From Candidatus Woykebacteria bacterium (lineage in GTDB: Bacteria > Patescibacteriota > Microgenomatia > Woykebacterales > RBG-16-39-9b): DNA of 64,000 bases. The DNA lies in contig JBBDPM010000006.1 of assembly GCA_040876345.1 (NCBI GenBank), forward strand, positions 264,547 through 328,546, written 5' to 3'. This document shows, piece by piece, positions 21,845 to 50,744 of the stretch. Each line of letters opens with the position of its first letter. Positions within the stretch are counted from its first letter, which is position 1. The notes under the pieces are model-generated. The model saw only the letters and a program-made list of their open reading frames with translations, searched no databases and was not told the origin of the DNA. A program made the translations under genes and the position numbers.

Positions 21845-24800
21845 ATGGAAGACAACCTGCCCAAAGTTGATCTCGCCTTGGGCGAGATTTTTTCGAAATA
21901 TAGGGATTACCTAAAATCCTCCGGGTACTCCAATCCCACTGTAAAGAACTATTTGTCGGATCTTCGCCATCTTATCGCTTGGATTAATGAGCGCTATTCC
22001 GGCTTTTCCTTTGTCTTTCTTACTCTCCCCTCAGTTCGGGCCTACCGAAGTTTTGTTAAGGAAAAATTTCGCTCTAAACCATCAATCTCGGCTCGCCGCC
22101 TCTCATCCCTTCGCAAATTCCTCTCCTGGGCTGGCAATTTAAAATATGTTCCAGAAGATCTAGTAAAAGCGACTGAATATATTCTTTCCGACAAAGAGGC
22201 ACCGACTACTCTACCCCAACCTCAAATAATCTTCCAAGGACCATCAACTGAGCTTAAGGACGAAACCAAAACTCCTCCAGTGCCAGATAAAATACATCAA
22301 AAGCACCATATCAAATACACTCGCCCACTCTGGTATCAGCGTTACCACGAGCACCCTGCTCACCGCGTAATCCACTTCTCCATACTGGGAGTGTTCCTGT
22401 TACTACTTGCAAACCTAATGTTTGGTCAACTCATAGGCGACTTGCTAAAAAGAGAAACTGCGCCGGATCTTGGTAATGTTTTGGCCGCGACTCCACCGAG
22501 GATTCTTTCTTTTCAAGGAAGACTAACAGATGAAAATGATGTACCGGTTTCGACGGCTACCAACATTGTCTTCAGAATATGGGACGACGATCTTGATAGT
22601 ACGGAGGTTGATTGTGATGGCGGCGGTGACGAAGATTGTATGTGGAAGAGTAAAACCTGGTCAGTTACACCAGATCAAAATGGTATCTTTTCTGTCTTAC
22701 TAGGTGATACAAGTCAGTCGGATACCACCATACCGGCTTCTCTATTCTCCGATAATGCTTCACTTTGGCTTGGGGTAAAGGTTGAATCCGACTCAGAAAT
22801 GACTCCTCGCCAACGCATCGCCTCCTCCACTTACGCTCTCAATGCTGATGCGCTTGATGGAGTCGATTCGGTATCATTCCTTCGCTCTGATGCATCGGAC
22901 AACTACACCTCCGGCACCCTTACCATAGATGACGGCACTACCTTTGCCGTCAACTCAACCACAATCGGCATTGGCAATGCTTCTTCAGACGCGGCCACGA
23001 TTAACGCTACCTCTACCTTTAACACTGATGTTAACCTAAGTTTAGCGTCAACTGAAGATTTGGTAATTACAAATACCAACTGGGCACCCGCATCAGGCAT
23101 AGGATTAGTTGATGTCAACGCTACCTCCTCCACCAACGACGCTCGTGGTGTTGACAATTATTTTGATTTAAACAGTACTGGCAGTGTTACTCAATACGGG
23201 TACTATGGAAATTTTGATGCTACCAGCGTAGCCTTGGCCGACGATACCACTTCAAACTACTACGGTATCTACCAGACTGTCAGTAAAACTGGTACCGATA
23301 CGGCCGCAACAACTGCCACAACAACTGGCACCTACGGGATAAGAGCCTCAGCTTCAAACACTTCAGGTACAAATGACGCGGAAATTACCAGGAAAACGTA
23401 TGGAGGCTACTTTTCAGCTGAAAATAACGGAACCGGGAACGGTCAAGCTTATGGGATTTACTCAACGGTGTCTGGAAATGATGACTCATCAGAATCGGAC
23501 TTCGCCTACGCCGGCTACTTCAACGGGGCTCTGAACACAACCTACAACGTTGGTGTGGCTTCCGGTACTGGCTGTTATATTAACATTTGCGACGCCGTGA
23601 CTTCAAACCCTACCGACATCGCCGGCCAAGGCTTCTTTGGAGCCGGCAGGCTAACTGCATTCTCTGCAAAAGTTGATATAAACCACTCATTTACCACTGA
23701 CAGCGCCATTGGTTTGTTAGTCAATACCGGTACTAAAACTTCCGGAACCGTTACCAATAACTATGGTATTAAAGTTGAAAACCAGACCTACGGCAGCACC
23801 GATTATGGTCTTTATATTGCTGGTGCGGAAGATTATGCAATTTACACGGCTGCTGATGACATCAAATTTGTCCAAGCAGCTGCCGACTCCCTAACTATTG
23901 ACGCTGGCACAACGGACAAGACCCAAGACGCAATTTCCCTTGATGTTGATGTTAATAGCACAAATGTAGCTGGAATGTTTGTTGACCTGGATGTTGGTAC
24001 TGCCCTATCTTCTGGAGAAATTGCCGATGGACTCAAAGTAGACGTTGCCGGTAATGCATCGGATAATGCCGCTGCAGCTGTTAATGGTCTTCGCTTGAAA
24101 GGTGCAACTGCCTCTGGAGCTCCTGTAACCGGAGTCAACATTGAAACAGCTTTTGACGTTGATATAGATCTTCAAAATGATGAACAAATACTAAATACTG
24201 CCGATGACGAGATTGAATTCCAATGTGCGCCAGCTGGCAGCTGTACTGCATCTAATGACTTAAGGTTTGACTTAGACGGTACCAATCCTGTCATTGATTC
24301 GCCTACGGACACAATAATACAGATAAACGATACTCTGATGATTGATCTAGCTGGTAACGCTAGTGATGAGGCCATCTGTGGAGACAATGCTGAGGATGAT
24401 ACGACGGATGTTATGGTAAACGATTGTACCACTGGTTCTACTGAAGATTACGCCGAATTCTACTCAGTTGAGCCCAATACAACGTACGGCCATATTGTTT
24501 CTGCTGGAGATGAGTATATTACAACAACTAAGCATAAACTAGATCCGCAAACTCACACTTTCGTCAAATTAGTCAAAGCTCAAAAAGGCAGTAACCGCAC
24601 TATGATTGGGATAGTTAGTAATAACTACAGCGATTTTAGTGTTACAGGTGACAGGATAAAGCCAGAAGACAACCCCTTTCCTATCGCTCTAAATGGGCGA
24701 GTGCCAGTATTTGTAACCGATGAAAATGGATCAATCGAAGTCGGGGACCGAATAACTTCTTCTTCAACTCCGGGTGTGGGTATGAAGGTTGATGATCAAA

Positions 24801-25363
24801 CCGAACAAACGATTGGTATTGCTCTTTCTGCTTTCGATGAGCGTGGTCAGGGTAGCATTATTGTATTTGTAAATATCGGTTGGAATTTTATTGATCTTGA
24901 CCAAGAAACCCGAATAAAAAACCAGATAACCGAATACCTAACCGGTATCGACCATTTGAATATGAAAAACCTTAAAGCTGAAACCATAAGCATTGGCGAA
25001 AACAAAATTTCGCTGGACGATGAAGGTAATTTAAGAGTTGATGGAAATCTTGTTGCAAAGGGTGATGTAAAAATTGAGGGTAACTTAACTTTAGACGGAA
25101 GTTTTTCAGCTAAAGAGATCAAAACGGAAAAATTGGGCTTGGGTGAAAAATCAACTGGAACGGCAACTCTACGCAAAGGAGAAACAAGGGTTGAAATTGA
25201 AGCATCGGAAATATCCGAAAACTCGTTGGTTTTTATCACCCCAACCTCAAGAACTTATGATGTGCTAACAGTGATTGAGAAAAAGCCTGGGGAGGGCTTT
25301 GTCGTTGAAGATTACTTCCCCGCTGAAGAAGACATCCACTTCAACTGGTTCTTTGTAAATTAG
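21845..25363 (+). CDS. Giant membrane-anchored surface protein (1172 aa): cytoplasmic XerD/integrase SAM-like N-domain, single TM, S/T/G/D-rich ectodomain, conserved C-terminal module
   Basis: The N-terminus (PTVKNYLSDLRHLIAWINERY...LSSLRKFLSWAG) matches the phage-integrase N-terminal SAM-like core-binding fold. TM is HFSILGVFLLLLANLMFG. The C-terminal module (PIALNGRVPVFVTDENGSIEVGDRITSSSTPGVGMKV...IVFVNIGW, then ENKISLDDEGNLRVDGNLVAKGDVKIEGNLTLDG) is shared with the 1730-aa protein and with the c-subunit fusion protein. Confidence 0.8.
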   Translation: MEDNLPKVDLALGEIFSKYRDYLKSSGYSNPTVKNYLSDLRHLIAWINERYSGFSFVFLTLPSVRAYRSFVKEKFRSKPSISARRLSSLRKFLSWAGNLKYVPEDLVKATEYILSDKEAPTTLPQPQIIFQGPSTELKDETKTPPVPDKIHQKHHIKYTRPLWYQRYHEHPAHRVIHFSILGVFLLLLANLMFGQLIGDLLKRETAPDLGNVLAATPPRILSFQGRLTDENDVPVSTATNIVFRIWDDDLDSTEVDCDGGGDEDCMWKSKTWSVTPDQNGIFSVLLGDTSQSDTTIPASLFSDNASLWLGVKVESDSEMTPRQRIASSTYALNADALDGVDSVSFLRSDASDNYTSGTLTIDDGTTFAVNSTTIGIGNASSDAATINATSTFNTDVNLSLASTEDLVITNTNWAPASGIGLVDVNATSSTNDARGVDNYFDLNSTGSVTQYGYYGNFDATSVALADDTTSNYYGIYQTVSKTGTDTAATTATTTGTYGIRASASNTSGTNDAEITRKTYGGYFSAENNGTGNGQAYGIYSTVSGNDDSSESDFAYAGYFNGALNTTYNVGVASGTGCYINICDAVTSNPTDIAGQGFFGAGRLTAFSAKVDINHSFTTDSAIGLLVNTGTKTSGTVTNNYGIKVENQTYGSTDYGLYIAGAEDYAIYTAADDIKFVQAAADSLTIDAGTTDKTQDAISLDVDVNSTNVAGMFVDLDVGTALSSGEIADGLKVDVAGNASDNAAAAVNGLRLKGATASGAPVTGVNIETAFDVDIDLQNDEQILNTADDEIEFQCAPAGSCTASNDLRFDLDGTNPVIDSPTDTIIQINDTLMIDLAGNASDEAICGDNAEDDTTDVMVNDCTTGSTEDYAEFYSVEPNTTYGHIVSAGDEYITTTKHKLDPQTHTFVKLVKAQKGSNRTMIGIVSNNYSDFSVTGDRIKPEDNPFPIALNGRVPVFVTDENGSIEVGDRITSSSTPGVGMKVDDQTEQTIGIALSAFDERGQGSIIVFVNIGWNFIDLDQETRIKNQITEYLTGIDHLNMKNLKAETISIGENKISLDDEGNLRVDGNLVAKGDVKIEGNLTLDGSFSAKEIKTEKLGLGEKSTGTATLRKGETRVEIEASEISENSLVFITPTSRTYDVLTVIEKKPGEGFVVEDYFPAEEDIHFNWFFVN

Positions 25364-25367
25364 ACCT

Positions 25368-27779
25368 TTATCTACAATCAGTACCGTAGGCGCTCACCAT
25401 TGCCCCGATCTCTTGAACACCCACTATTCCATCCGGAGGTCCCCACTGCCAAGCACTCATACCCGCAAATTTTGATCTATCATAATTTATTGAGTAATTT
25501 GGTTGGCCCCATCTTGCCCCATAATGACTAACGATCAATCCTATGTCAGTGACCGCTATTACTGAGTCATGATCCGCGTCAAAGAAGTCCCATTTATTCA
25601 GGGGATCTCGTAATCCACCCAACCATTTGTTTGGCCCAAGCTCCTTGACATTTTTGCAACCATCACCATCGGCATCTTCCAAACCGTCATTTGTCCCATT
25701 CCCGTTACTGTCAGAAGCGTTTGGATTTGTTTTTAAAATAAATCTTTCTTGGTAGTCCCGCAACCCATCACTATCTTGATCCCCTTCTCCATCCAAAACT
25801 CCATTGTTGTCAGAGTCACTATCATGCGGGTCAGTTCCTAAAGTTAGTATTTCCTCGTGATCCAGCACTTTATCGCTGTCGCTATTGTGGCCAATAAAAA
25901 TGGACTTTGTGCCCTTTAGACCTACGTTATCGGTGACAGTCAATCTAATTTCCAAAAAGTGTAACTCGCTTCCTGAGTCCGCCGGTGCAATGAAATTTTT
26001 GTTTGTTCCTAAAGTTTGCAAATATGGATGGGTGTGACAACCCCCTCCAACCACGGGCTCGCAGTGGTGCAATAAAACGGTCCAGGAAAGGCCTGAGGCA
26101 ACCATTGGCCCGTTTTCTGGATCAAAGCCACTACCGTTTAGTGTCAATGTTTGTAAGTAATTGTAAGATAAACGAGCGGTTGGTGTGCCAATAAAAGCCT
26201 CGGGAGGAGCGTTTCCGACAATTATATTAATCACATCAGTATCGGTAGCACCATCGTTGTCAGTTACCGTTAGTTGAACATTATATGTCCCGTTTTGATT
26301 AAAAATGTGTTGTGGGTTTGCCTGGGAAGAAGAGCTGCCATCTCCAAAATCCCAATCATAAGAGACTATATTTCCATCAGAATCGTAACTGGTGTTATTA
26401 AAATCAACCGTCAGCGGTGAAAGCCCACCCTGAACGGACGATGAAGCTTGCGCGACTGGAGCCAAATTACCCTCAGGAGCAATAATATGCCGGATGTCCC
26501 CACTACTGTCAGTAAAAGCCTCCCACGTAATATAGTAAACATCTCCATCAGGACCAATTTTGAATGCTATTGGGGAGCCTTGATTCTGCAAAATAGTCTC
26601 CACACTTCCTTCAATAAGCTCGTTGTTTGCATCCAGTTTCAACACACCAATTTTTTTCTGGACCCAATCAGCAAAGAAAAAGGAATTCGAAAAAACTGAA
26701 GGGTAGTTTTCACCCTGATAAAACACCCCTCCTATAACGGCAGCCCCTTGACTTGGTGGCCTTTCGTAGCTGTAAACAGGATGAACAACTGCTGCCCCAG
26801 AGGCATAAAGTTCCTGGCACACTTGCATACTACTATTAGTTGGGTGTTGGCTCACCCCCTCATAACAAGGCCATCCGTAGTTGCCGCTAGCGGTAGCCAC
26901 ATCAATTTCTTCCCAATAAGTTGATCCAACGTTCCCAACAACCGGAAGATTCGTTCCTGGTTGAATTGTAAGACTGTGGGGATTGCGAAAGCCGTAAGCC
27001 CAAATTTTTGAGCGGTTGGCATTTGGATCTCCAGTAAAAAATGGGTTATCTGCTGGTCCTGTACCATCCGTATTAATTCTTAGAACCTTACCTGACAGAC
27101 TATCCAAATTTTGAACCCTTGCCAGTTTGTTCGGATCTAGGAAATTATCTGTACTGTCACCAATAGCCAAAAACAGTTTTCCATCTGGAGCAAATTCCAT
27201 GCCACCACCAGTGTGAAACGGATCATCATTTGGGATACAATCCGTGCCAGTGGGAAAATTGTTACACGATGGAGCGGCCGGTGTGCCTACTTGCGTTCCA
27301 AGTAAGACCACTTCGCTCCCAGGCACCGCTACATCACCGTTAGCTGTCACTCTGATAAGCCGCCCATTTTTTGGCCCCTGGGGATTAGCAGGATCATTCT
27401 CGTAAGTATAGTAGATATAAACATATCCATTTGTATCAAAATTTGGATCTAAAGCAAAATTTTCTAGGCCTCTTTCTATCGCGTTATTTACCGGAAGTTG
27501 GATGAATGGTGTTGGTAGTATTTGCCCATTTTTATGAACTAGTACCTTACCGTCAAGGGTAGCAATTAATATTCTACCGTCATTCGTAAACTCAAAATCT
27601 TTTGGTTGGCTTAGATCGTCCACGACAATTTCGCTGTAAAGCAAACCTTCTAGTTGGGCATGGGTGGGGGATGATGATTTAATAGAAACTACTAGAAGAC
27701 TGCACAAGAAAATGAAAAGAACCACGCTTAGTAATAACCTCTGGAGAAAATTTTTTCGCGCTTTAACTTTCATCATCAT
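25368..27779 (-). CDS. Secreted multidomain protein: glucose/sorbosone-dehydrogenase-like beta-propeller, PKD domain, thrombospondin type-3-like Ca-binding Asp-rich repeats
   Basis: Signal peptide. GSDH-like motifs (DPNFDTNGYVYIYYTYEND...GRLIRV). PKD domain (SPLTVDFNNTSYDSDGNIVSYDWDFGDGS...YNVQLTVTDNDGATD). D-x-D-x-D repeats (DSDSDNNGVLDGEGDQDSDGLRDY; DSNGNGTNDGLEDADGDGC). Confidence 0.7.
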   Translation of the reverse strand: MMMKVKARKNFLQRLLLSVVLFIFLCSLLVVSIKSSSPTHAQLEGLLYSEIVVDDLSQPKDFEFTNDGRILIATLDGKVLVHKNGQILPTPFIQLPVNNAIERGLENFALDPNFDTNGYVYIYYTYENDPANPQGPKNGRLIRVTANGDVAVPGSEVVLLGTQVGTPAAPSCNNFPTGTDCIPNDDPFHTGGGMEFAPDGKLFLAIGDSTDNFLDPNKLARVQNLDSLSGKVLRINTDGTGPADNPFFTGDPNANRSKIWAYGFRNPHSLTIQPGTNLPVVGNVGSTYWEEIDVATASGNYGWPCYEGVSQHPTNSSMQVCQELYASGAAVVHPVYSYERPPSQGAAVIGGVFYQGENYPSVFSNSFFFADWVQKKIGVLKLDANNELIEGSVETILQNQGSPIAFKIGPDGDVYYITWEAFTDSSGDIRHIIAPEGNLAPVAQASSSVQGGLSPLTVDFNNTSYDSDGNIVSYDWDFGDGSSSSQANPQHIFNQNGTYNVQLTVTDNDGATDTDVINIIVGNAPPEAFIGTPTARLSYNYLQTLTLNGSGFDPENGPMVASGLSWTVLLHHCEPVVGGGCHTHPYLQTLGTNKNFIAPADSGSELHFLEIRLTVTDNVGLKGTKSIFIGHNSDSDKVLDHEEILTLGTDPHDSDSDNNGVLDGEGDQDSDGLRDYQERFILKTNPNASDSNGNGTNDGLEDADGDGCKNVKELGPNKWLGGLRDPLNKWDFFDADHDSVIAVTDIGLIVSHYGARWGQPNYSINYDRSKFAGMSAWQWGPPDGIVGVQEIGAMVSAYGTDCR

Positions 27780-27980
27780 TAAAAATCAAACTATTATAAA
27801 CTACAACTGAAAGGCAGCTGAATGGTAGCAGGTAAAATTGGGTTAGTCAAGAGCTTGCAAGGGTGCAGGAGCTAGTGCCCTGATAGTCTAAGACGGTTTT
27901 ATTTGACTTTTGAATTTATTCTAGTTAGACTTAAATTGGCAGGCTAAAGTTACATAAATCCTTAATATATAACTAATTTT

Positions 27981-28667
27981 ATGTATAAAGCCTTGCCTTT
28001 CTTTATATTTGGACTGACAATTCTATTAATACCCTCCTCTGTTTGGGCTTTTGGTTCTTCGTCAACAAATTACACACTGGACGCTGAATTTGGGAACTGG
28101 GCTGGATCTAAATCTAGTACAAACTATAACTTAACGGATACTGGTGGTGGGTTTGCTGTTGGGTTCGGGAGCAGCGCAAATTATGGAACCGGCAGTGGTT
28201 TCCAGTATGTGCTAGCCGAGATTCGCGAGATGACAGTTACACTATCGAGTAATTCCATAAATCTTGGGACACTAAGCACCGGAGCCGTTACAACGGCTTC
28301 AAATTCAATTGAGGTAGATACAAATGCCGCTGGCGGCTACCAAGTAACAGTGCTAGATGACGGTAATTTACGCACTGGAGCTGGTGCCGACATTAACGAT
28401 GTTTCCGGTGGAACAGTTGGCTTAGGAAGCGAAGAATATGGTCTTGCAACCTCGCAATCCGGTCAAACTATTACTCAAGATGCCTCATGTGGCCCTGATC
28501 CAGATAATGCAAGCGCCATTACAACCTCAGCTCAACTAGTAGCTTCATCATCCCTACCTATAGAAGATGACGCCACCATTCTTTGTTATTCAGCTTCAAT
28601 ATCTGGGTCAACTTCAGCTGGGTCTTACTCTCACGTTTTAACGTACATAACAACAGGTACATTCTAA
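27981..28667 (+). CDS. Secreted S/T/G-rich surface protein (228 aa) with a conserved C-terminal module ...AGSYSHVLTYITTGTF
   Basis: Signal peptide MYKALPFFIFGLTILLIPSSVWA. The C-terminal ~50 aa are paralogous to the next gene. Confidence 0.7.
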   Translation: MYKALPFFIFGLTILLIPSSVWAFGSSSTNYTLDAEFGNWAGSKSSTNYNLTDTGGGFAVGFGSSANYGTGSGFQYVLAEIREMTVTLSSNSINLGTLSTGAVTTASNSIEVDTNAAGGYQVTVLDDGNLRTGAGADINDVSGGTVGLGSEEYGLATSQSGQTITQDASCGPDPDNASAITTSAQLVASSSLPIEDDATILCYSASISGSTSAGSYSHVLTYITTGTF

Positions 28668-28686
28668 TTGACAAAGTTTTTGGTTT

Positions 28687-29787
28687 ATGAAAAAATCATT
28701 AGACAGGATGCTTAAACGCACAGTTGCAATCTTAGTCTTATTGACAATAATAGCCCTTCCCTTTTCATTCAATAAGGATGTTCAAGCTGCATCTCACACA
28801 GCTATATCTGATACTTTATCACGTCTCCAAGACACAACTACAGCCAACCACACAATTCAGTTTGATCTCGCAACCGCTTGGGATGATACGGAAGCTCTTG
28901 TAGTAGATTTTGTCGACGGTGATGGTTTTAGCACGGCCGGTTTTGCTAATACTGAAGCCGAAGATTTTGATATTACTTGGGAAGGAGCTGAGCAGACTAT
29001 TGTGGCCGCCGGTGGTTGTAGTGGAGCTGCCATTGAGATAGAAGTTACCACTGTAGACACAACTACTGATACCTTTACCTTCACCCGCTGCACTGGTGAT
29101 GCTGATTCAGCCGCCAATGACACTGTGGTTATTGAGATTGGTACCAACGCAACCGCAGGCAGCGCTGGTAATGACCAAATTGTAAACGCTACCAGCTCTG
29201 GGAGTAAAACAGTATCGCTAACCGGTCCGACTTCTGGAGATAGCGCTCAATTTGCTCTGGCCATAATGAGTGGGGATCAGGTTACCGTCTCAGCAACTGT
29301 TGATCCATCAGTTACTTCTTCGCTAAGTGCCTCAACCTGTACTTTGGGTACTCTAGTCTCAAGTGCAATCAATTTTTGTTCATACACCAATACGGTTTCG
29401 ACAAACGCAACCAGCGGCTACGCATCCACTATAGTTGAAAACGGAAATCTTTGTTCTCCTTCCGTCGCCGTTTGTACAAATACCGTAGATGATGCAGCTG
29501 GAGATAACGACGTGGATCAAGCTAGTGAAGAATATGGAGTCTCTAGCAACGACACTACAGGTACTCAAGACATTATTGATAGTACTGGATGTGATGACAG
29601 TGGAGTTGTTGAAGCAGCCAGCGCAATTACAACAAGTGCCCAGGTTTATGCTGACAGCGGTGATGGCGATACTGGGCCAGTTTCGGGCGCGGTTACCACT
29701 GTTTGTCACTCGGCTTCTGTAAGTGGTACTACACCGGCCGGAAGTTATAGTCATATTGTCACTCACATTACGACTGGTACTTTTTAA
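28687..29787 (+). CDS. Secreted S/T/G/D-rich surface protein (366 aa), paralog of the preceding gene, same C-terminal module ...AGSYSHIVTHITTGTF
   Basis: Signal peptide. Shared ASAITTSAQ...C.SAS.SG.T.AGSYSH..T.ITTGTF ending. Confidence 0.7.
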   Translation: MKKSLDRMLKRTVAILVLLTIIALPFSFNKDVQAASHTAISDTLSRLQDTTTANHTIQFDLATAWDDTEALVVDFVDGDGFSTAGFANTEAEDFDITWEGAEQTIVAAGGCSGAAIEIEVTTVDTTTDTFTFTRCTGDADSAANDTVVIEIGTNATAGSAGNDQIVNATSSGSKTVSLTGPTSGDSAQFALAIMSGDQVTVSATVDPSVTSSLSASTCTLGTLVSSAINFCSYTNTVSTNATSGYASTIVENGNLCSPSVAVCTNTVDDAAGDNDVDQASEEYGVSSNDTTGTQDIIDSTGCDDSGVVEAASAITTSAQVYADSGDGDTGPVSGAVTTVCHSASVSGTTPAGSYSHIVTHITTGTF

Positions 29788-29794
29788 TTAACAA

Positions 29795-30868
29795 ATGACT
29801 GCTCAACTGCCTAGTAAGAAAGTATTAATAGCCCTTTTAACAACAGTGTTTGCGCTGGCAACCCTCAGCTCTACTCTATTCGCTCAAGAATCTGACCAGA
29901 AAGAAGAAGCTGCTGAAGGTAGCGTGGGTATTCAAATATCCGCCCCTATCTATAACTTCGAAATAGACCCCGGTAAATCGGCTCAGGAAATAATCAAAGT
30001 GCGCAATGTCTCTAATATTGTACACACTTTTTACCCAGAAGTTTTTGACTTTAAACCAAAGGACGAAACTGGAACTCCGGAATTTTTAATTGGCGATCAG
30101 AGCAACTCTTATGGGTACTCGCTCGCCTCTTGGATAAAAATCGCCCAGGAAGGCATAAAACTCGCTCCAGATGAATCAGCGGCTTTGAATTTCACCATAA
30201 ATGTACCAGCCGATGCCGAGCCAGGTGGTCATTACGCCGGAGTATTGTTTGGCACTTCAGCACCAAAAGTGGGCGGAAGCCAAATTGGAATATCAAATAA
30301 AGTTGGCTCGCTTATCTTAGTGAGAGTTGCCGGAGACGCGAAAGAGTCAGCAAATATTAAAGAATTCACCACCTCAACGAATTTTTATGAGCAAGGGCCA
30401 GTCCCATTTACAGTCAGAGTGGAAAACACGGGCAACGTTCACGTTATACCAAAAGGCGTAATTGAGATCAAAAATATTTTTGGTAGTTCAGTAGCTACAC
30501 TTAACGTTAATGAGAAAGATGGCAGCCTACTTCCAGAGAGCATCCGCGCCTTTATGGATAAAGATGGTAACAAAATTACCTGGAGTCCAGATAGTCTAAC
30601 GATTGGAAGGTTTACGGCAACCTTAAACTTAACCTACGGTGATCCTGCTAAAAATCTAACCTCGAGCGTCACTTTCTGGGTGGTGCCTTGGAAAATATTA
30701 CTCGTAATTCTACTTGGTCTAATAATAATAATTCTTATGATTATCTTCCTAGTTAAAAAGTACAATCGCTGGATTGTTTCGCGAGCGACGAATAATGCGT
30801 CTGGACCGGGGCAAAATCCACCAACAAGGAATAGTCAAGGCGGGCCTGCCTCCCCACCGATAGGCTGA
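29795..30868 (+). CDS. Cell-surface protein with signal peptide and C-terminal TM anchor (possibly DUF916/CscA-like)
   Basis: Signal peptide, a beta-rich ectodomain (ISAPIYNFEIDPGKSAQEIIKV...GGHYAGVLF...VGSLILVRVAG), C-terminal TM ILLVILLGLIIIILMIIFLV, then a positively charged, Pro-rich tail. Confidence 0.55.
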   Translation: MTAQLPSKKVLIALLTTVFALATLSSTLFAQESDQKEEAAEGSVGIQISAPIYNFEIDPGKSAQEIIKVRNVSNIVHTFYPEVFDFKPKDETGTPEFLIGDQSNSYGYSLASWIKIAQEGIKLAPDESAALNFTINVPADAEPGGHYAGVLFGTSAPKVGGSQIGISNKVGSLILVRVAGDAKESANIKEFTTSTNFYEQGPVPFTVRVENTGNVHVIPKGVIEIKNIFGSSVATLNVNEKDGSLLPESIRAFMDKDGNKITWSPDSLTIGRFTATLNLTYGDPAKNLTSSVTFWVVPWKILLVILLGLIIIILMIIFLVKKYNRWIVSRATNNASGPGQNPPTRNSQGGPASPPIG

Positions 30869-31473
30869 TGAGAGCTTTCTCCTCTTTAGCTTCAGTTTTG
30901 CTAGCTTTCATACTAGTTTCTCCAATATATGCTCAAGATGTGGACGTTGGTGGTACGGTGGATAAAGAAAACCCAACTGTCTTAATAACTAACCCGATCA
31001 ATGGATCAACCGTATCAGGAACTATAAATGTTACTGCAAACGCTTCGGATGATGTAGGGGTCTCTAAAGTAGAATTTTACGTCGATGGCGATTTAGTTGT
31101 TACCGACACAAGCGCACCTTATGGATTCGGTCTAGACACAAAAACCTTCTCTAACGGCTCTCACACGCTTCTGGCAAAGGTTTATGACACCGTTTCCAAA
31201 ACCGCTACTGATAGTGTTACTTTCAAGACAGCTAATAAAGTGACTCTTGAATCACCAACAAAACGGATACAAGAGCCAACCATCGGCCCGCCAAAGGTAG
31301 CCACGAAGTCAACTGGGGAGGGTAGAAAAACCACCTTAGTCCAAATACCGGAAGAGGAAAAGGAAGGAGGCCCGTCTAATAATCAACGGGATTTTATTTT
31401 AGGGCTTATCATTGGAGTTGAGATTTTTTCGGTCCTACTCTTAATTTATCTACTACGCAGAAGGAAAACTTAA
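30868..31473 (+). CDS. Surface protein with a bacterial Ig-like domain and C-terminal TM anchor
   Basis: Signal peptide. Ig-like segment VSKVEFYVDGDLVVTDTSAPYGFGLDTKTFSNGSHTLLAKVYD. C-terminal TM ILGLIIGVEIFSVLLLIYLL plus RRRKT. Start overlaps the stop of the previous gene. Confidence 0.6.
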   Translation: MRAFSSLASVLLAFILVSPIYAQDVDVGGTVDKENPTVLITNPINGSTVSGTINVTANASDDVGVSKVEFYVDGDLVVTDTSAPYGFGLDTKTFSNGSHTLLAKVYDTVSKTATDSVTFKTANKVTLESPTKRIQEPTIGPPKVATKSTGEGRKTTLVQIPEEEKEGGPSNNQRDFILGLIIGVEIFSVLLLIYLLRRRKT

Positions 31474-31745
31474 ATACCCAAGAAGATTTTGACTACGTTA
31501 TTGCTGACCTCTAGCACTCCATTTCTAAACTGATAATTAACCCCTTTGCCATCAACTGTTCTTACAATAATTCGGTCTTTGATAAGACTAATTAAATTGG
31601 CATGCTGGGGAAGAACATCAAACGGGCCTAAATCATTTTGGGTGGAGATAGATGAGGCTTTGCCTTTATAGTCCGGATCACGAGTAAAGGAATGCCAGAG
31701 AATTGAAACATCCAGTTCGTTTTTGGTCACTACTTCTTGGTTCAT
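31470..31745 (-). CDS. atpC: ATP synthase F1 epsilon subunit (short form, beta-sandwich domain only)
   Basis: Directly downstream of atpD. FDVLPQHANLISLIKDRIIVRT...NGVLEVSNNVVKIF resembles the epsilon N-terminal domain (ILPGHAPL..). The C-terminal helical hairpin is absent. Confidence 0.65.
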   Translation of the reverse strand: MNQEVVTKNELDVSILWHSFTRDPDYKGKASSISTQNDLGPFDVLPQHANLISLIKDRIIVRTVDGKGVNYQFRNGVLEVSNNVVKIFLGI

Positions 31746-31752
31746 AAAATCC

Positions 31753-34006
<2,254 letters not shown>

Positions 34007-34010
34007 AATT

Positions 34011-35498
34011 TCAAACTACTGTGTTTTGGATTCTTGAATATAGAATTTGCTCAATTTTCTCTCGGTTTGCTCCTAGATAGTTTTCTAGAGCCTCAACATC
34101 TTCAAACTTTTGCAAATCTGCCACAACACTTTCAAAGGCACATTTCGCAAAGGCCTCGACGAGTTTTGTCCTCTCAACCCGCACTTGCTCAATATTTTTA
34201 CTAGACCAATAATCTGAAAATGCGAGGCCAACAAGTATAAGTGCAACATCTTTCGGTATCACGGTGTATGTCTCTTGATCAAATATAGCCTCGAGTCGCT
34301 CTCCAATATTTAAGTCCGATCTTGTTTTGAGTGGAAGATCAAAGCCAAAATGTGAAAGCTCCTGGGCTTTGCGATAAAGGTTGAGTTTTTCAACAAGAGC
34401 TCTTCTTATTTTTTGCTCTAGCATATTTTGGGTTTGATTGCCAACTCTTGTTACTGAAAGAGAGGTATTTACCGCGGGCCTTCTTCCCTTTTTAAATTCT
34501 GCCTCGTCAAAGAAAATATGACCGTCCGTCATAGCCATAGAATTTGTTGGTAAGTAACCGGTTAAGTCGCCTTGGACTGTTTCAACTACTGGCAAGGCTG
34601 TGATACTGACTGAACCACTCCCGTATTTGATCCTACCGGCTCTCTCAAGAATTTTTGCGTGGATGTGAAAAATGTCGCCCGGGTAACTCTCCCTGGCTGG
34701 CATCTTTTTAGAAAGTAGAGAAATTTCCCGGTAAAATTTTGCGTGGTTTGTAAGGTCATCCAAAACAATTAGTACATCTTTCCCCAAATCTCGAAAATAC
34801 TCCGCTAAAGTAAAGGCGGAGTAAGGCGCAAGATAAACGAGGGATGCGGGATCAGCTGACGACGCAAATACAATAACACAGTTTCCCAAAATCCCAGTTT
34901 TCTGAAGATAATCCTCAATACTTTTAATATCCGATTTTTTCTTTCCAATTCCAACATAGATACAAATAGTACCTTTTTTTGCCTGGTTGTAAATTGTCTG
35001 GAGCAAAAAAGTGGTCCTTCCAGTTTTTTGATCCCCAAGAATAAGCTCCCTTTGACCCTTGCCTAAGGGAATCATATAGTCAACTATTGCTACACCAGTC
35101 TCAAGCTGTTCTGAAATTTTAACCCTTTCCTGAATCCCTGGCGCTTTATTGAATACAGGCCTAGACTCTTTCTCCCCCATTGCTGGACCAAGGCCGTCTT
35201 GGGTATTCATAAGGGGTCCAACAACCCTACCTAACAAATTTTGTGATACCTGGATCTTCATATTCTCTCCGGTTCTTGCAACTCTTTCCCCTATTACGGG
35301 TAGATCGCTCTCCAAAAGAATTACCTCTACAAGTTCTGGGTCGATAGATTGAACAATACCTTTCTTTCCAGTCTCAGTTATTACTACCTCAGAAAGCTTA
35401 GCCTTAGGCAGACCGGAAAGATAAATGACTGTATTTAAAACACTCTCCACTCTACCGATTTCTTGAGTTTCCCTTAAGTAGTCGTCGAAGGTTTTCAT
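34011..35498 (-). CDS. atpA: ATP synthase F1 alpha subunit
   Basis: Walker A ELILGDQKTGRTTFLLQTI. 495 aa. Confidence 0.95.
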   Translation of the reverse strand: MKTFDDYLRETQEIGRVESVLNTVIYLSGLPKAKLSEVVITETGKKGIVQSIDPELVEVILLESDLPVIGERVARTGENMKIQVSQNLLGRVVGPLMNTQDGLGPAMGEKESRPVFNKAPGIQERVKISEQLETGVAIVDYMIPLGKGQRELILGDQKTGRTTFLLQTIYNQAKKGTICIYVGIGKKKSDIKSIEDYLQKTGILGNCVIVFASSADPASLVYLAPYSAFTLAEYFRDLGKDVLIVLDDLTNHAKFYREISLLSKKMPARESYPGDIFHIHAKILERAGRIKYGSGSVSITALPVVETVQGDLTGYLPTNSMAMTDGHIFFDEAEFKKGRRPAVNTSLSVTRVGNQTQNMLEQKIRRALVEKLNLYRKAQELSHFGFDLPLKTRSDLNIGERLEAIFDQETYTVIPKDVALILVGLAFSDYWSSKNIEQVRVERTKLVEAFAKCAFESVVADLQKFEDVEALENYLGANREKIEQILYSRIQNTVV

Positions 35499-35950
35499 GA
35501 AAAAGCCCCCTTAACTTTCTCTTTTACAACTTGGTCCAGTATTGAAGCGTAAGAATAATCTCGGAAATTTCCCATAAACTCGATGGTTGCACCCGCCAAT
35601 AAGTCTCTCTTTACCGTAATTTCCAGTACTAAGTGATCACTCCTCCCTACATTTAGTAGTCGGGATATCTTCCTAATAAATTCTTCGTTTGGCTCAAAAG
35701 CAAATTCAAGCCGAGCCTTTGGTAATTTGACGAGAAAGTCTTTTAAGTTTTTCAGCTTTTTAGCTAAATCTTCTTCGGGTGGTTCCCTGTTACCCTCAAT
35801 CCCAAGCTCCTTTAAAACTTCGGGAACGCCTGGATTTACCTCTGCAAGGTTCGTCCTTGCAGATTCACCTATCTTCGCTATTTGGTAAAGCAAATCATTG
35901 AGCTCCTTTGTTGTATATATTTTTGCTATAACTTCTCTCGAGAGTTGCAT
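35495..35950 (-). CDS. atpH: ATP synthase delta (OSCP) subunit, short
   Basis: Operon position and a delta-like C-terminal pattern (LLAGATIEFMGNFRDYSYASIL). 151 aa. Confidence 0.65.
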   Translation of the reverse strand: MQLSREVIAKIYTTKELNDLLYQIAKIGESARTNLAEVNPGVPEVLKELGIEGNREPPEEDLAKKLKNLKDFLVKLPKARLEFAFEPNEEFIRKISRLLNVGRSDHLVLEITVKRDLLAGATIEFMGNFRDYSYASILDQVVKEKVKGAFS

Positions 35951-35952
35951 GC

Positions 35953-36627
35953 CTACAAAAACCTTTCATTTTTGGCGCGCTCGAGTGCCTTAAGTACAAG
36001 CTCTTCGTGTTTACCTGTATCAACCGATTGCTCAATAGTTTCTCTAGCAACATCAGAAACCACCAGGAATATCTTCTGATCAAGATCATTTTTCACCTTT
36101 TCTTTATAAGAGGAGAGTTCTTGGTTGACCTTACCTCTCTCCTCGATAGTGGCCTTGATAAGCTCCTCTCGCAGCCTGCCAATCTCAAGCTGGATGGAAG
36201 ACTTGGCACCGGCCACTACTTTACCAAACTCAGAGTTTTGAACTTGGGCTAAATTCTCAAATTCTTTTTTATAAGATTCTGTGATAGTATTTATTATATT
36301 TTGAAATACTTCAGAATCTTTTGATATAGTATCCCTAACTAACGCCTCTGCTTTGGCGTTTAATTCTTGCCTCATTTGCTCCCCCACATCCTCTACACTC
36401 TTGAGTTCTTCTAGGGTCTCTTCCACCGTATCTTTAGATTCCTCAAGCGCTTCGCTCAAGACCTTTTTCTCTTTGCCGACAACTCTATTTCGAAGTTTCA
36501 ATATCCTTCTTAGAAATGGTGTTAAATCGGCTAAATTGCGTTGAGTTTGATATAAACTAAAAAGGAGCAATAAAACAATGAGATTTAGGAAAATTGATCC
36601 TATTAATAGTATTTGTAAGGTGTCCAT
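35953..36627 (-). CDS. atpF: ATP synthase Fo b subunit (long, 224 aa)
   Basis: Single N-terminal TM LLIGSIFLNLIVLLLLFSLY followed by a long charged coiled coil. Position upstream of atpH. Confidence 0.7.
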   Translation of the reverse strand: MDTLQILLIGSIFLNLIVLLLLFSLYQTQRNLADLTPFLRRILKLRNRVVGKEKKVLSEALEESKDTVEETLEELKSVEDVGEQMRQELNAKAEALVRDTISKDSEVFQNIINTITESYKKEFENLAQVQNSEFGKVVAGAKSSIQLEIGRLREELIKATIEERGKVNQELSSYKEKVKNDLDQKIFLVVSDVARETIEQSVDTGKHEELVLKALERAKNERFL

Positions 36628-36628
36628 A

Positions 36629-37459
36629 TTATCTGCCTAAGAAAATTAACAATAAAGAAAGCCCTACTCCGGCTGCTGTGAATATTAAAACTGTTAATAA
36701 ATTCAAAAACATGCTACCTTGGATAGTCCCCTTTGCCAGTGGGTTTCTGCCAATTGCAACTATTCCAGTCCTAACTGCCCGAGCTGCTGAAATGAATCCC
36801 AGACCAAATGATATAATTATTAAAATTAGGGCGAACAAGTATCTAAGCAAAAGTTGAAAGTTGTTAGGCTCTTGAAGACTTGTTGAGGTAAAAGCAACTA
36901 GCTTTTGCCAAAGGTCATCGGCATTTTGTCCCCCCAGTTGAGTTTGATAATGAATATTAATTTGCACAGATATATTACCCACCCCACTGCCAGAATACGA
37001 TGCTAACGCCTTACCGAGAACCACACCAGCTTGTGTGGCCTTTTGACCAACACCAGGATCTTTTGAAGCAGTGATAAAATCGCCCAGTGAAATGTTACCG
37101 TTTACCGTTGATACTTTTACGAGCGCCTCACCCTCTGAAACTATAGCTTTTGACTTGTCTGTTTTTTTGTTGAGTTCAATGGCCGGGTTTTCAACAACTA
37201 CTCCAAAAACATTTTGATCGTAGGCAACTACTGCGCGGACCAGATTATCATCCTCTGTAATTGAGACTATATCTCCCGCCTGCGCTTCGCTGTCAGAAAC
37301 CTCAAGATTTGTGGCAATCTGCGTCCCCAAAAACTCTTGAGCAAAACTACTGCGCGGGAATATAAAACCAAAGACCGCCATTATCAACATTAAACCCAGT
37401 AAGGTTCGAGTGTACATAGGCTTAGAAACTAGTGACCAGAGACCAGGGGAAGTTATCAT
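36629..37459 (-). CDS. Fusion protein: signal/TM + extracellular domain (homologous to the giant-protein C-terminal module) + C-terminal Fo c-subunit-like helical hairpin lacking the ion-binding carboxylate
   Basis: The C-terminal 75 aa (GLGFISAARAVRTGIVAIGRNPLAKGTIQGSMFLNLLTVLIFTAAGVGLSLLLIFLGR) align to c-subunits (ARQPE loop becomes GRNPL; ...IYLGR end becomes IFLGR), but the conserved TM2 Glu/Asp position is Leu. Residues ~40-200 (IVSEGEALVKVSTVNGNISLGDFITASKDPGVGQKATQAGVVLGKALASYSGSGVGNISVQI) match the giant proteins' C-terminal module. It sits in the atpE position directly upstream of atpF, and no atpB lies between it and the next gene. Confidence 0.6.
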   Translation of the reverse strand: MITSPGLWSLVSKPMYTRTLLGLMLIMAVFGFIFPRSSFAQEFLGTQIATNLEVSDSEAQAGDIVSITEDDNLVRAVVAYDQNVFGVVVENPAIELNKKTDKSKAIVSEGEALVKVSTVNGNISLGDFITASKDPGVGQKATQAGVVLGKALASYSGSGVGNISVQINIHYQTQLGGQNADDLWQKLVAFTSTSLQEPNNFQLLLRYLFALILIIISFGLGFISAARAVRTGIVAIGRNPLAKGTIQGSMFLNLLTVLIFTAAGVGLSLLLIFLGR

Positions 37460-37540: not shown

Positions 37541-40500
37541 TTGACAAATCTTCCAGGAAATTTCATAATTTTAGGTAGAGTTTCCCGTGACGGGAAAGCC
37601 TACCTCCCGTGGGAAACCAAGTTCCAATCTCTGCCAATGGAACCGACTAAATTAGAGGGCCAAACATTACTGCCATACTCTGAAATCATTACCCTTGCTA
37701 AGAAGGTGGGTGTTGATTTTGGTAAAGGCTATCCCTACAATAGGCTCCGCTACTACACCAAAATCGGTCTTTTACCCCGCGCGCAAAGAAAATCTTTTGG
37801 TGCATCACCTGAAGGGTGTTACCCCTCTTGGGTTGTCGATAAGTTAGTTGATGTAGACCGAAAGCTAAAAAGTGGCGCAACAATCCAAGCAATTCTCCGG
37901 GAAGAAAGTGATCCAAAGACTAACCCTGTAACAAACCTTGAACCAATAACTTTAACTCCGGCTTACGGAGTTTACCCAAACCTCCTTGCCCAATCCGAAA
38001 TCGATCATAGATCGTCGATAGTCGATAGTCGAACTTCGAACATCGACCATCCAACATCCTGGTTTCCCTTCTTGGGTAAAACCCTCGCCTACTCTACTTT
38101 ATTATTAATAATACTAGGTGCGTCCCTAGTGAGCGCTTACTTTTGGCCACCGACTCATCAAGGGTTGAGAAATATAGCTGCCAATTTAGGCACGAAAGAT
38201 TCAATTTCCCGTGACGGGAAAGATATTTCCCGCTCCGCCAACCTCCTAAGTGACAAAGTTGGATCGGTACTTGGCCGGGCCACTTCCCCATTCCTTAAGA
38301 TAAATGTTGAAACTGAGATGGATAAACTCCTGTCCGCAAACGGCGGCATTGTAACTAATGGTGCAGATGTTAACCTCGGAGATGGTCAATTAACCGCTTC
38401 GAATGTTATTTACGATATTGTAGCTGGTGAAAATGTGACTGTGGGTACTGGTCAAACTCCAACTATCTCTGTACCAGACATTACCGCTGGAATTGGATCT
38501 GTAAGTGGAACAGCCGGAAGAATCACATCCACTGGAGGTGATAACCCTGCTATAAATATTGCTAGCAACTACGCGGGTCAGACTTCCATCAATACTTTAG
38601 GTACTATCACAACTGGCAATTGGAATGGATCAGTAATATCCGATGCCTTCATCAACAATAACCTAACGATATCTTCTTCCGGCAGTGTTGCCTGGTCAGC
38701 GCTAAATAGCTACCCTGCTTCTTGTGGAGCCGGTGAATTCGTTCGAGCAGTCGGCGACGCTCTTACTTGTGTTGCCGAGTCTGGTGGTGTCCCAACAACC
38801 AGAACTTTAACAGCCGGGGCTGGTCTGAGTGGTGGTGGCGATCTTTCGGCGGATAGAACTTTTGATGTTGGTGCGGGTAATGGAATTACGGTAAATGCTA
38901 ACGACGTAGAAGTCAACGCGAACGCGGCCGATTTTGAATTTGTGGCCGGGGTTTTAAATATTGCCGCTGGTGCAATTGAAGATGATGAGGTGGATGATGA
39001 TATAACTATTAGTTCATCTGGCAGTGTTGACTGGAGTGCGCTAACGGGTTACCCTGCAGATTGTTCTGCTGGATCTGCCCTAACCGGGTTTAATGACGCA
39101 AACCCCGACACCTTTGATTGCGATGCGGATTTTGTGGAAAGCAACGTCGCGGAAACTATTACCGGTGGTTGGGTCTTTAATACCAACCCAACAACATTCG
39201 ATACTGATGCCACTTTTAACGCTGGTATAATTGCTAGTGCGCTTTCGGGAGCAGCCGGTACTGCCTTGTGTATTGATGGGACCGATAACATAGTTACTTG
39301 TAATGCAGGTTCCTCTTCCGCTACCCTGCAAAGTGCCTATGACGCTGGTAATTCTATCACCACAGCCGATGCAGATGGCAGCATACTCTTTAACTTGGCT
39401 GACACTGCTGCCGATCAAGATTTCATTGTTGATATTTTAGGAACCGGGAATACTTTTGAAGTTCGGGATAATAACTCCCCTATTCTTTCAGTGGCCGACG
39501 GCGGAACAGTCGGCATCACCGGTACCTTGGACGTTTCTGGCCACGGTGCTTTTGGAGGAGGCGGAAGCGTTTTAAGCTCTCGAATTCTTAATGTAAGTGA
39601 AACTTTCACAACAGGTGGTGCTAGAGGGCTGGTAGTTAATCCTACGTTTAACCCAAGCGCCTTAACCACCGTTCGTTCCTTCGATAACACACCTACATTT
39701 GGCCCAACTGGAGCAAGTACTATTACAATGGTGGGCGATTACGTCAAAAGTACTGTCGGTGGTTCCAATACAGGTGCTGGAACGAGTCTTTACAACTCCT
39801 ACATTGACTCGCCAACAATTGGAGGCACAACAGTTGTCAACAATTATGGCCTTTATATGGCTGATCAAAGTGGTGCCACAAACAATTACGCACTATACCA
39901 AACCGGAACAAGCGCCACCAACATATTGAACGCCAACACCAGAATTGGCTCTACTACTATCCCTGCAGCGACTTTAGATATAGCTGGGACTTTGCTCGCT
40001 GATTCTGATGTTACTCTCAGTCATTCTGGAACAGAAAATTTGGAAATTATATCTACTAGTTCAACTGATATGATTAACCTTGCTATATACGCACACGCAT
40101 CCGCCCTGGCTGGTGCCAAGACTGGGATTCTAATCTCCAATGCTGGGGGAGGATTTCCTGAAGGTCTTGACATAGGACTTAATGTCACAAATGTAAATGG
40201 TCTTGATATGCCAGACGGTATATTAATCGACTCATCTTCTGGAACTTATACAGATGCCATTGATGTTTCAGATTCTGACATTGTGAATGCCCTGAACGTA
40301 GGTAGTAACGTAATTTTAGGAACCACACCAACAATTGATTTCACTAATTTTGATGTTTCTAGCGGTGGGCAGCTTACATTTACTGGCGTCTCAACGGATA
40401 TTACTACGGGGGCAAACGAAGATTTAACTCTTTCACCAAACGGTACTGGTGACATTATATTGTCCACTGATGGAGATACTTCGGCAATTCTATCTTCCTT

Positions 40501-50548: not shown

Positions 50549-50624
50549 GTGTCATCCTGAACTTGATTCAGGATCTCTGTTTAAGATTTGCGCACTATAA
50601 CATAAACTATGAGCCTTGTCAAGT

Positions 50625-50671
50625 CCCTCTTCGAAACTACTAACTTTTGCTACTAATTTCGAAGAGAGGGG
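50625..50671. other. Imperfect ~12-bp inverted repeat (CCCTCTTCGAAA ... TTTCGAAGAGAGGG) at the low-GC/high-GC boundary
   Basis: Read directly from the sequence. Lies between the LPXTG gene start and the 3' end of the high-GC operon. No clear poly-U tract on either strand. Confidence 0.4.
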
Positions 50672-50744
50672 CAGACGATTCTTGTCCGAAGACTAAGAAC
50701 CGTATTTGATCTCACTCCTTCCCCTCTCTCCTTCACCTATGACC

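Follow-up and report, generated by a model that had tools for sequence, protein, structure and literature searches.

What kind of surface structure does a compact block of four secreted proteins build in a bacterium of the Candidate Phyla Radiation (CPR)? The question is raised by a locus of Candidatus Woykebacteria (Microgenomates group, Patescibacteria/CPR), at positions 27981-31473 of a window of 64,000 nucleotides (nt), which is the whole stretch of DNA analysed here (GCA_040876345.1, contig JBBDPM010000006.1). A preliminary description had likened this block to the csc/WxL clusters of Firmicutes and put it forward as a new non-covalent surface complex. We conclude, with a probability of about 0.85, that these genes specify a minimal Pam-type pilus for a monoderm CPR host, which would be assembled without an usher through chaperone-assisted donor-strand exchange. 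The Pam pilus of Candidatus Mycosynbacter amalyticus was resolved by cryogenic electron microscopy (cryo-EM) at 2.8 and 3.6 A (Troman et al., bioRxiv 10.64898/2026.03.03.709456). In that filament the linker strand of one PamA/PamB subunit fills the open C-terminal immunoglobulin (Ig)-like domain of the next. According to the same preprint, Pam homologs are most prevalent in two groups, of which Microgenomates is one, and the Pam pilins lack homologues outside CPR.

The four open reading frames (ORFs), here P1 to P4, all lie on the + strand at exactly the coordinates first given for them, and they are real and conserved. P1 (27981..28667, 228 amino acids, aa) is a small pilin and putative PamT-like tip subunit. 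P2 (28687..29787, 366 aa) is a two-domain major pilin of PamA/PamB-like architecture. P3 (29795..30868, 357 aa) is a membrane-anchored chaperone with two Ig domains, PamC/PamD-like in architecture and a relative of the DUF916/WxLIP proteins. P4 (30868..31473, 201 aa) is a small membrane-anchored Ig-domain protein, the putative terminator and anchor of the pilus and an analogue of PamR. The overlapping starts and stops reported earlier hold for the P3/P4 junction only, where the genes share 1 nt within cTGATGa and P4 is translationally coupled to P3 via TGATG; P1 and P2 are 19 nt apart and P2 and P3 7 nt apart. Read by eye, the N-termini of all four proteins resemble signal peptides, ending VWA|F, VQA|A, LFA|Q and IYA|Q. 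Identical copies (100%) of the encoded proteins appear as hypothetical proteins WD231_04575, WD231_04580 and WD231_04585 in a metagenome-assembled genome (MAG) of Candidatus Woykebacteria. Upstream, the 201-nt gap (27780..27980, +) between P1 and a divergent 803-aa gene is the probable promoter region. It holds a sigma-70-like site, TTGACT-17-TAGACT, at 27903-27931, of a kind no commoner here than in shuffled sequence, and scans for promoter and terminator consensus stayed at chance level.

Homology to known Pam pilins is clearest for P1. It matched the NCBIfam models NF058579 PamT (E=1.2e-12, 47.8 bits, residues 9-179) and NF058581 Pam_pilin_C (E=2.8e-12, 47.0 bits, residues 89-228). Of the 119 P1 homologs found, 31 were aligned; the PamT model matched every one of these (best 9e-84) and Pam_pilin_C matched 29 (best 5e-43). 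The N-terminal region of P1 (residues 24-84; 28050..28232, +) is conserved, PamT-specific and G/S-rich. It precedes the pilin domain, lies within the PamT model and carries three S-S-x-N-Y-x-L-like repeats (SSSTNYTL, SSTNYNL and SSANYG); S28, G42, S46, Y49, G56, S65 and G73 are invariant across the 31 homologs. The NYTL and NYNL motifs once taken for WxL-like elements belong to this region, and we rejected them as degenerate WxL motifs: the positions that align with WxL are GY.V in mid-domain and LT(Y/H)I at the C-terminus. The remainder of P1 (aa 85-228; 28233..28664, +) is the Pam pilin C-terminal domain, truncated, Ig-like and the predicted acceptor of a donor strand, with one cysteine pair, C170/C202.

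P1 and P2 form the paralogous, S/T/G-rich secreted pair recognised at the outset (S+T+G makes up 40% of P1 and 36% of P2). BLASTP aligned them at 41% identity over ~185 aa (E=2e-24), and profile-profile comparison of their C-terminal domains with hhalign gave 100% probability (E=1e-38, 146 columns). The common module first noticed in their last ~60 residues thus extends over the whole C-terminal domain. It is also kept well beyond these two genes, in 331 P2 and 119 P1 matches; all named P2 homologs come from CPR bacteria, and in the alignments the ..AGSY...(V/L)T(H/Y)I.TG.F motif and the terminal aromatic residue are retained across CPR lineages. Pam_pilin_C matched 27 of 43 aligned P2 homologs (best 4e-13). 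The AlphaFold2 (AF2) model of P2, which has a mean predicted local distance difference test (pLDDT) score of 89.9, contains two beta domains (strands 38-194 and 209-364) joined by coil at 195-208. The first, an N-terminal beta-sandwich (aa 35-194; 28789..29268, +), opens with a conserved SDTLSR..(x)..ANHTI.F segment. The second (aa 209-366; 29311..29784, +) is the paralog of the P1 C-terminal domain and ends in the conserved motif PAGSYSHIVTHITTGTF. P2 contains eight cysteines. Searched domain by domain, its structure matched the PapGII pilin domain (probability 0.98) and the CfaE adhesin, among others.

Between the two domains of P2 lies the linker SGDQVTVSATVDPS (aa 195-208; 29269..29310, +), the candidate donor strand, which is coil in the monomer model between strands 186-194 and 209-213. 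It ranks with the best conserved parts of the family, V205, D206 and P207 being invariant or nearly so. We scanned species-representative genomes with the P3 family, obtaining 327 loci, took gene-order and motif counts from the best 80, and counted linker motifs with one simple sequence pattern. The motif occurred in 38 of 114 large pilins at a median position of 191, which is the inter-domain linker. It is absent from P1 and was found in a single one of 54 small pilins. In 20 of the 45 genes next after the chaperone it fell within the first 100 residues, as compared with 37 of 715 background ORFs; a few of these 20 matches are false positives in transmembrane (TM) segments, and we regard the result as supportive, not decisive. 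Conservation and distribution of the motif are indirect support for the idea that the P2 linker would be donated to the neighbouring subunit.

P3 is beta-rich with a signal peptide and a C-terminal TM anchor, as first described, and its AF2 model (pLDDT 84.6) resolves two Ig-like domains (D1 46-178, D2 186-296) and a helix at 299-334. The TM helix WKILLVILLGLIIIILMIIFLV (aa 299-320; 30689..30754, +) is followed by a 37-aa basic, Pro/Gly-rich tail. Top Foldseek matches in the PDB were the Enterococcus faecium WxLIP structures 9i25_C and 9i1y (E=5e-11 to 2e-10), in an alignment of 270 columns on a 251-residue chain that runs through both domains. Next came the chaperones CfaA, Caf1M, CsuC, DraB, FimC, EcpB and CupB2 (E=1e-9 to 5e-7), with TM-scores of ~0.5-0.56 against chaperone-usher chaperones when normalised to the chaperone (target). 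Sequence profiles told the same story. The Pfam family WxLIP_PGBD (DUF916, PF06030) matched P3 at E=0.0011 (19.4 bits, under the 27.3-bit cut-off) and 31 of 38 P3 homologs (best 5e-9), and some CPR homologs are already named "DUF916 domain-containing protein" at NCBI. DUF3324 (PF11797), the second domain of WxLIPs, found no Pfam match in any of the 38 family members. Among all PDB sequences the top match of the P3 family profile was EfmWxLIP1 (E=0.005). Nine WxLIPs of Firmicutes, from the plasmid loci L004-L012, gave 97% (E=1e-10) in hhalign over 220 columns across both domains; the second domain alone reached only E=0.034, and the full-length hhalign and Foldseek alignments run through it. 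Tblastn with P3 recovered annotated DUF916 proteins on plasmids of Clavibacter, Cellulosimicrobium, Arthrobacter and Streptomyces (best E=1e-13) and unannotated DUF916-like relatives in Deinococcus. Profiles and predicted fold together demonstrate that P3 is homologous to the WxLIP (DUF916) proteins.

Residues 154-181 of P3, TSAPKVGGSQIGISNKVGSLILVRVAGD (30254..30337, +), are a candidate F1-G1 loop and G1-like complementing strand. A flexible loop (coil at 154-169; pLDDT 64 in the block 161-170) leads into a conserved strand of alternating hydrophobics, KVGSLILVRVAG, in which G171, L173, L175, V178 and G180 are invariant or nearly so. The segment aligns with the loop that follows the AGIHVS strand of EfmWxLIP1, a loop predicted to insert into WxL (PMC10599100).

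P4 is the small, Ig-like, C-terminally TM-anchored protein of the first account, with a Big_7 Ig domain (E=4e-23, residues 36-101), a C-terminal hydrophobic TM segment read from the sequence (DFILGLIIGVEIFSVLLLIYLL; 31390..31455, +) followed by RRRKT, and no LPXTG motif. Its mature N-terminus, QDVDVGGTVDK (aa 23-33; 30934..30966, +), resembles the P2 linker DQVTVSATVDP, and the orthologs begin DVDITATID, DVDVGATVD and DVDVEATVD. We consider this a donor-strand-like motif that may insert into a pilin.

All of the best 80 among the 327 P3-relative loci are from CPR, in several CPR classes, and their gene order is near-universal: a small pilin (180-260 aa), one to five large pilins (340-380 aa) and one to three chaperones. 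Outside the closest relatives the gene 3' of the chaperone is variable, and its product often has a TM segment at the C-terminus and VNVSAVV, INVSGLV, VGLSGTVRGP.P or the like at the mature N-terminus. This conservation bears on the least probable of the explanations we considered, namely that the four genes are an unrelated adhesin or S-layer-like set of Ig folds, with neither strand exchange nor functional coupling, whose likeness to a pilus comes from the commonness of beta-sandwiches. Three observations lean that way: Foldseek with the whole P2 chain gives weak matches of mixed kind (MSCRAMMs, integrins, BslA), the promoter and terminator scans did not rise above chance, and the Big_7 module of P4 is generic (29,830 matches by phmmer against 1.84 billion representative proteins, dominated by giant multi-Big_7 proteins and uninformative on orthologs). 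Tight spacing with one overlapping junction, a gene order kept in 80 loci of several classes, and significant matches that are specific to Pam and WxLIP models and not to generic Ig families leave this explanation with very little probability.

A number of variations on the common plan were seen among these loci. Large pilins range from one copy, in the window, to three to five tandem paralogs (L013, Berkelbacteria CP066697.1; L069 and L071, Saccharibacteria), and many Saccharimonadia loci carry two chaperones with an opposite-strand small pilin between them. In several Parcubacteria/Falkowbacteria-type loci the chaperone is followed by a protein of 680-1110 aa (L042:8064-10331, L044:8024-10294, L060:7961-10219, L063:8137-10404, L091:7959-11297 and L092:8216-10270). 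These proteins have the P2-type N-terminal domain (SVSDTMSRQK..ANHEI.F) and no pilin C-terminal domain, and some end in a dockerin-like DLN.DTGVNSLDINILLANL segment; they may be alternative tip or adhesin modules. The same operon is also carried by MAGs labelled "Gammaproteobacteria", "Nanoarchaeia", "Magnetospirillaceae" and "Rikenella microfusus" (L016, L017-L019, L026, L027, L041, L044, L045, L073, L087 and L091), which are probably mislabelled bins or contaminating contigs.

The WxL comparison deserves closer attention. The reference families are WxL (PF13731, with two Trp-x-Leu motifs) and WxLIP, which consists of DUF916 (PF06030) plus DUF3324 (PF11797), from Lactobacillales, Listeria and relatives (Siezen 2006; Hassan, Chaudhuri and Williamson 2023, PMC10599100). 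Their literature distinguishes a short WxL protein that is the domain only, a long WxL protein that carries it C-terminally, and a WxLIP with two Ig-like domains and a TM helix (PMC10599100). The parts list of our operon is much the same: a small domain-only protein, a large protein with a C-terminal domain, a two-Ig TM partner and a small protein with an anchor. In the WxL and the Pam system alike, an incomplete beta-sandwich is predicted to be completed by a strand of a partner, and the last strand of the subunits is similar, ..Y...(L/V)T(W/Y/H)(x)L/I... The two differ in that the WxL Trp is replaced by Tyr or His at both motif positions of the Pam pilins, that P4 is anchored by a TM helix while the small csc protein (CscD) is anchored by LPXTG, that our host belongs to CPR, and that WxL proteins are described as peptidoglycan-bound adhesin platforms, not filaments. 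The proposed csc/WxL resemblance stands for the parts list and for the DUF916 homology of P3, and is not supported by Pfam matches to WxL or DUF3324, of which there are none, or by an LPXTG motif. The WxL profile itself matched 0 of 31 P1-family and 0 of 43 P2-family members at E<=1. Phmmer of single P1, P2 and P3 sequences against PDB sequences returned no match, and the P1 and P2 family profiles found no WxL or pilin match there, the "long WxL" chain of 9i25 included.

In hhalign on trimmed alignments, the P1 C-terminal domain aligned with WxL over 134 colinear columns (15-17%, P=3e-4 to 2e-3), placing GY.V on GW.L and ..AGsYs..lTyi.. on ..a.tY.ttltW.L... A broader profile of 61 non-redundant Pam C-terminal domains reached 22-33% (P=2e-4 to 1e-3), as against P=0.03-0.97 for unrelated beta-domain controls. 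The scores of 27.2 (local) and 23.1 (global) exceeded those of all 48 block-shuffled templates (15.5 +/- 1.9 and 4.9 +/- 3.1) and of the reversed template (10.8 and 6.0). For the idea that the C-terminal motif marks a divergent WxL-like domain there is colinear similarity of 15-33%, above shuffles, and no Pfam match; homology of the pilin domain to WxL is suggestive but unproven, as judged from these profiles.

An alternative that draws on this similarity is a WxL-type surface complex that does not polymerise, in which P1 and P2 would be displayed singly and held by strand complementation from P3, by peptidoglycan binding, or by both, with P4 as an accessory. The closest relatives of P3 by sequence and fold are indeed WxLIPs, which the WxL literature reads as stabilisers of surface-bound WxL proteins; the gene set (small, large, partner) is the same, and the pilin C-terminal domain has its weak colinear similarity to WxL. 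Yet P1 and P2 belong to Pam pilin families whose members form filaments by cryo-EM, no Pfam WxL match was found in these families, and the conserved P2 linker and the matching P4 N-terminus would be left without a role. Furthermore, the peptidoglycan binding of WxL is known from Firmicutes work, and that of WxLIP from a docking prediction only. We consider this alternative unlikely, although likelier than an unrelated Ig-fold set. Since homologous Pam proteins form donor-strand-exchange pili, a peptidoglycan-anchoring role of the C-terminal module is unlikely too. It follows from the missing WxL and DUF3324 Pfam matches, the weak subunit similarity and the lack of LPXTG that the locus should not be filed as a WxL cluster.

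A Pam-type pilus would accommodate all four proteins. The likeness extends from the CPR host, the small single-domain PamT-like pilin and the lack of an usher to the plan of P2, which has the N-terminal beta-sandwich, linker strand and truncated Ig-like C-terminal domain of PamA/PamB. P3 has the two Ig domains and C-terminal TM helix described for PamC/PamD (10.64898/2026.03.03.709456), and P4 is small and TM-anchored, with a putative extra strand at its N-terminus. Our own analysis shows the gene order and how well it is conserved, the domain architectures, that P1 and P2 are homologous to the Pam models, and for P3 both homology and fold; the filaments, and the linker as donor strand, we take from the Mycosynbacter preprint. 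Assembly can be pictured as follows. All four proteins would be exported by Sec, with P3 held in the membrane by its C-terminal helix. The loop and alternating-hydrophobic strand at the end of the first Ig domain of P3 would fill the groove in the C-terminal domain of each new P1 or P2. P1, an acceptor domain that has no linker strand, would start the fibre at its distal tip. P2 would then be added at the base, the incoming linker ..VTVSATVDP.. displacing the chaperone strand from the preceding subunit. Finally, the mature N-terminus of P4, ..DVDVGGTVD.., would mimic the linker and plug the last P2, and the C-terminal helix of P4 would hold the fibre in the membrane. What the P3 loop and the P4 N-terminus do, in which order the parts assemble, and that the pilus serves for host attachment are our inferences.

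Several points weigh against a Pam pilus at this locus. P1 lies under the curated NCBIfam cut-offs, at 47.8 against 240 bits for the PamT equivalog and 47 against 55 bits for the Pam_pilin_C domain, and P2 itself matches no library model, even at E<=10; we read both as divergent members of the Pam models, not equivalogs. No NCBIfam model is matched by P3 or its homologs, whose likeness to PamC/PamD is by described architecture. P4 has one Big_7 domain where PamR has two fibronectin type III (FnIII, RbmA-like) domains, and its orthologs are recognised by sequence only in the closest relatives (L014-L016). The proposed pilus of this organism, a member of Microgenomates where Mycosynbacter belongs to Saccharimonadia, is deduced from genes and single-chain models, filaments have been seen in no Microgenomates organism, and the assembly pathway of the preprint is itself AlphaFold-based (10.64898/2026.03.03.709456). 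The window also holds one large pilin, one chaperone and no PamE, compared with PamA/B/E and PamC/D in Mycosynbacter.

It is also useful to set the proposed pilus beside better known ones. The chaperone-usher pili (Pap, Fim, Caf1, CFA/I, Csu) likewise have Ig-like subunits that miss a strand, a PapD-like two-domain chaperone, and a logic of tip, then shaft, then terminator. No usher-like gene was found among the four operon genes, and the neighbours are an ATP synthase, a glucose/sorbosone dehydrogenase (GSDH)/PKD protein and a large surface protein. The host here has no outer membrane, P3 is membrane-anchored while their chaperones are soluble, and the donor strand is an inter-domain linker while theirs is an N-terminal extension. 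The subunits have two domains, and the Mycosynbacter filament is extended, in contrast to the coiled rod of the chaperone-usher pili (10.64898/2026.03.03.709456). A sortase-type pilus was rejected, there being no LPXTG, no sortase in the operon and no isopeptide-domain matches above noise.

The surroundings of the operon fit the conserved neighbourhood of the preprint, given that an ATP synthase operon and a large surface protein flank it as they do in the Pam system; neither is part of the operon itself. The F-type ATP synthase operon (31470..37459, -; Pfam epsilon, beta, gamma and alpha) is convergent with P4, which it overlaps by 4 nt. It also stands beside the pam-like operon of the close relative L014, and ATP synthase genes are conserved neighbours of pam operons (10.64898/2026.03.03.709456). 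The large protein (21845..25363, +) is a membrane-anchored, beta-rich surface protein of 1172 aa whose only Pfam match is an N-terminal Phage_int_SAM_1. Its relatives adjoin pam-like operons in L014, L015, L017-L020, L023, L032, L035 and L053, and it is probably the "tail fibre-like protein" of the preprint. Its SAM-like N-terminal domain is followed by a TM segment and a long stretch rich in Thr, Ser, Gly and Asp; the last residues are ..FNWFFVN, and ..DITFDWFI(I/V)D in the relatives that adjoin pam-like operons in many CPR loci. Together with a related protein of 1730 aa (37541-42733, +) it brackets the pilus and ATP synthase block. The 803-aa secreted protein divergent from the operon (25368-27779, -) consists of a GSDH beta-propeller, PKD and a Thr/Asp-rich, dockerin-like C-terminus. 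Elsewhere the window is ordinary chromosome, with leucyl- and arginyl-tRNA synthetases (LeuRS, ArgRS), Obg, Rho, ClpB and two tRNAs. A 451-aa surface protein (49193-50548, -) has DUF11 and SpaA/SdrD-B-like prealbumin-fold domains, modules of the Gram-positive pilin or adhesin type, and is unrelated to the Pam operon. The G+C content peaks at 50001-52000 (52% as against ~42% for the window), which coincides with a 407-aa ORF (50745-51968, -) overlapped by several + strand ORFs; no Rfam family matched this segment.

What, then, is the relationship between Pam pili and WxL clusters? Directly upstream of DUF916-plus-TM genes, and near GH43 and LamG genes, we found proteins of ~210 aa on Clavibacter (L001:5098-5724) and Cellulosimicrobium (L002:5058-5702) plasmids and also in Deinococcus (L003). 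These proteins end ..AGDYSSTITLSLFE, and those beside the actinobacterial DUF916 genes have no Pfam match and are WxL-like by hhalign (66-82%, E=6e-5 to 1e-6). The Pfam WxL model thus clearly misses partners of DUF916 proteins, and unannotated WxL/WxLIP-like pairs occur outside Firmicutes. A second parallel comes from two Enterococcus mundtii plasmid clusters (L009:7019-7387 + 7392-8183; L011:3526-3867 + 3878-4741). Here small LPXTG proteins consist of a signal peptide, a motif (EVRSVETEGTIGFTGVY or EVQQVETEGSIRFTGTY), a Pro-rich stalk and a sorting signal (LPxTN), and the adjoining WxL proteins begin ETRQVTTNGNIEFTPS and EVRKVTTEGKIEFRPA, followed by a Pro-rich linker and the WxL domain. The motifs are nearly alike, VETEG(T/S)I(G/R)FTG in the LPXTG proteins and VTT(N/E)G(N/K)IEF in the WxL proteins. 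As read from sequence, it looks as though a subunit and a wall-anchored terminator shared an N-terminal donor strand, parallel to the P2 linker and the P4 N-terminus. The strand completion of WxL by WxLIP, as predicted in the WxL literature, is donor-strand complementation in all but name. The P1-P4 system probably works like a WxL cluster, or WxL clusters may work like the P1-P4 system.

The operon is a new, divergent and minimal Pam pilus. The Pam system itself is already known, having NCBIfam models and a 2026 preprint, and the novelty first claimed for the surface complex does not hold at that level. We tentatively suggest, at somewhat less than even odds, that Pam pili, the Firmicutes WxL/csc clusters and the pairs of a small protein with DUF916 on plasmids of Actinobacteria and in Deinococcus are one ancient family of usher-less, monoderm donor-strand systems with a membrane-anchored chaperone. 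In the literature covered, nothing connected DUF916/WxLIP with pili, with pilus chaperones or with CPR bacteria, and the Pam preprint never mentions DUF916/WxLIP. Given the relatives of the P3 chaperone family outside CPR, the claimed uniqueness of the Pam system to CPR already needs qualification. Were the suggestion true, Pam pili would not be an invention exclusive to CPR, WxL proteins would be pilin-like subunits, WxLIP would be an assembly chaperone and not a host-binding adhesin, and the small csc LPXTG protein would correspond to P4 and PamR, as a donor-strand terminator anchored in the wall. This would reinterpret widespread clusters linked to adhesion and virulence in lactic acid bacteria, enterococci and Listeria. 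It also offers a testable mechanism for WxL, in which WxLIP completes an open beta-sandwich and the N-terminal strands of a neighbouring subunit or of the LPXTG protein may replace it. For Microgenomates, whose attachment organelles we found characterised nowhere in the literature covered, the locus, taken as a Pam operon, extends the Pam pilus, structurally defined only in 2026 and in one Saccharimonadia parasite, in a four-gene version, and this set of one large pilin and one chaperone would be a convenient target for reconstitution.

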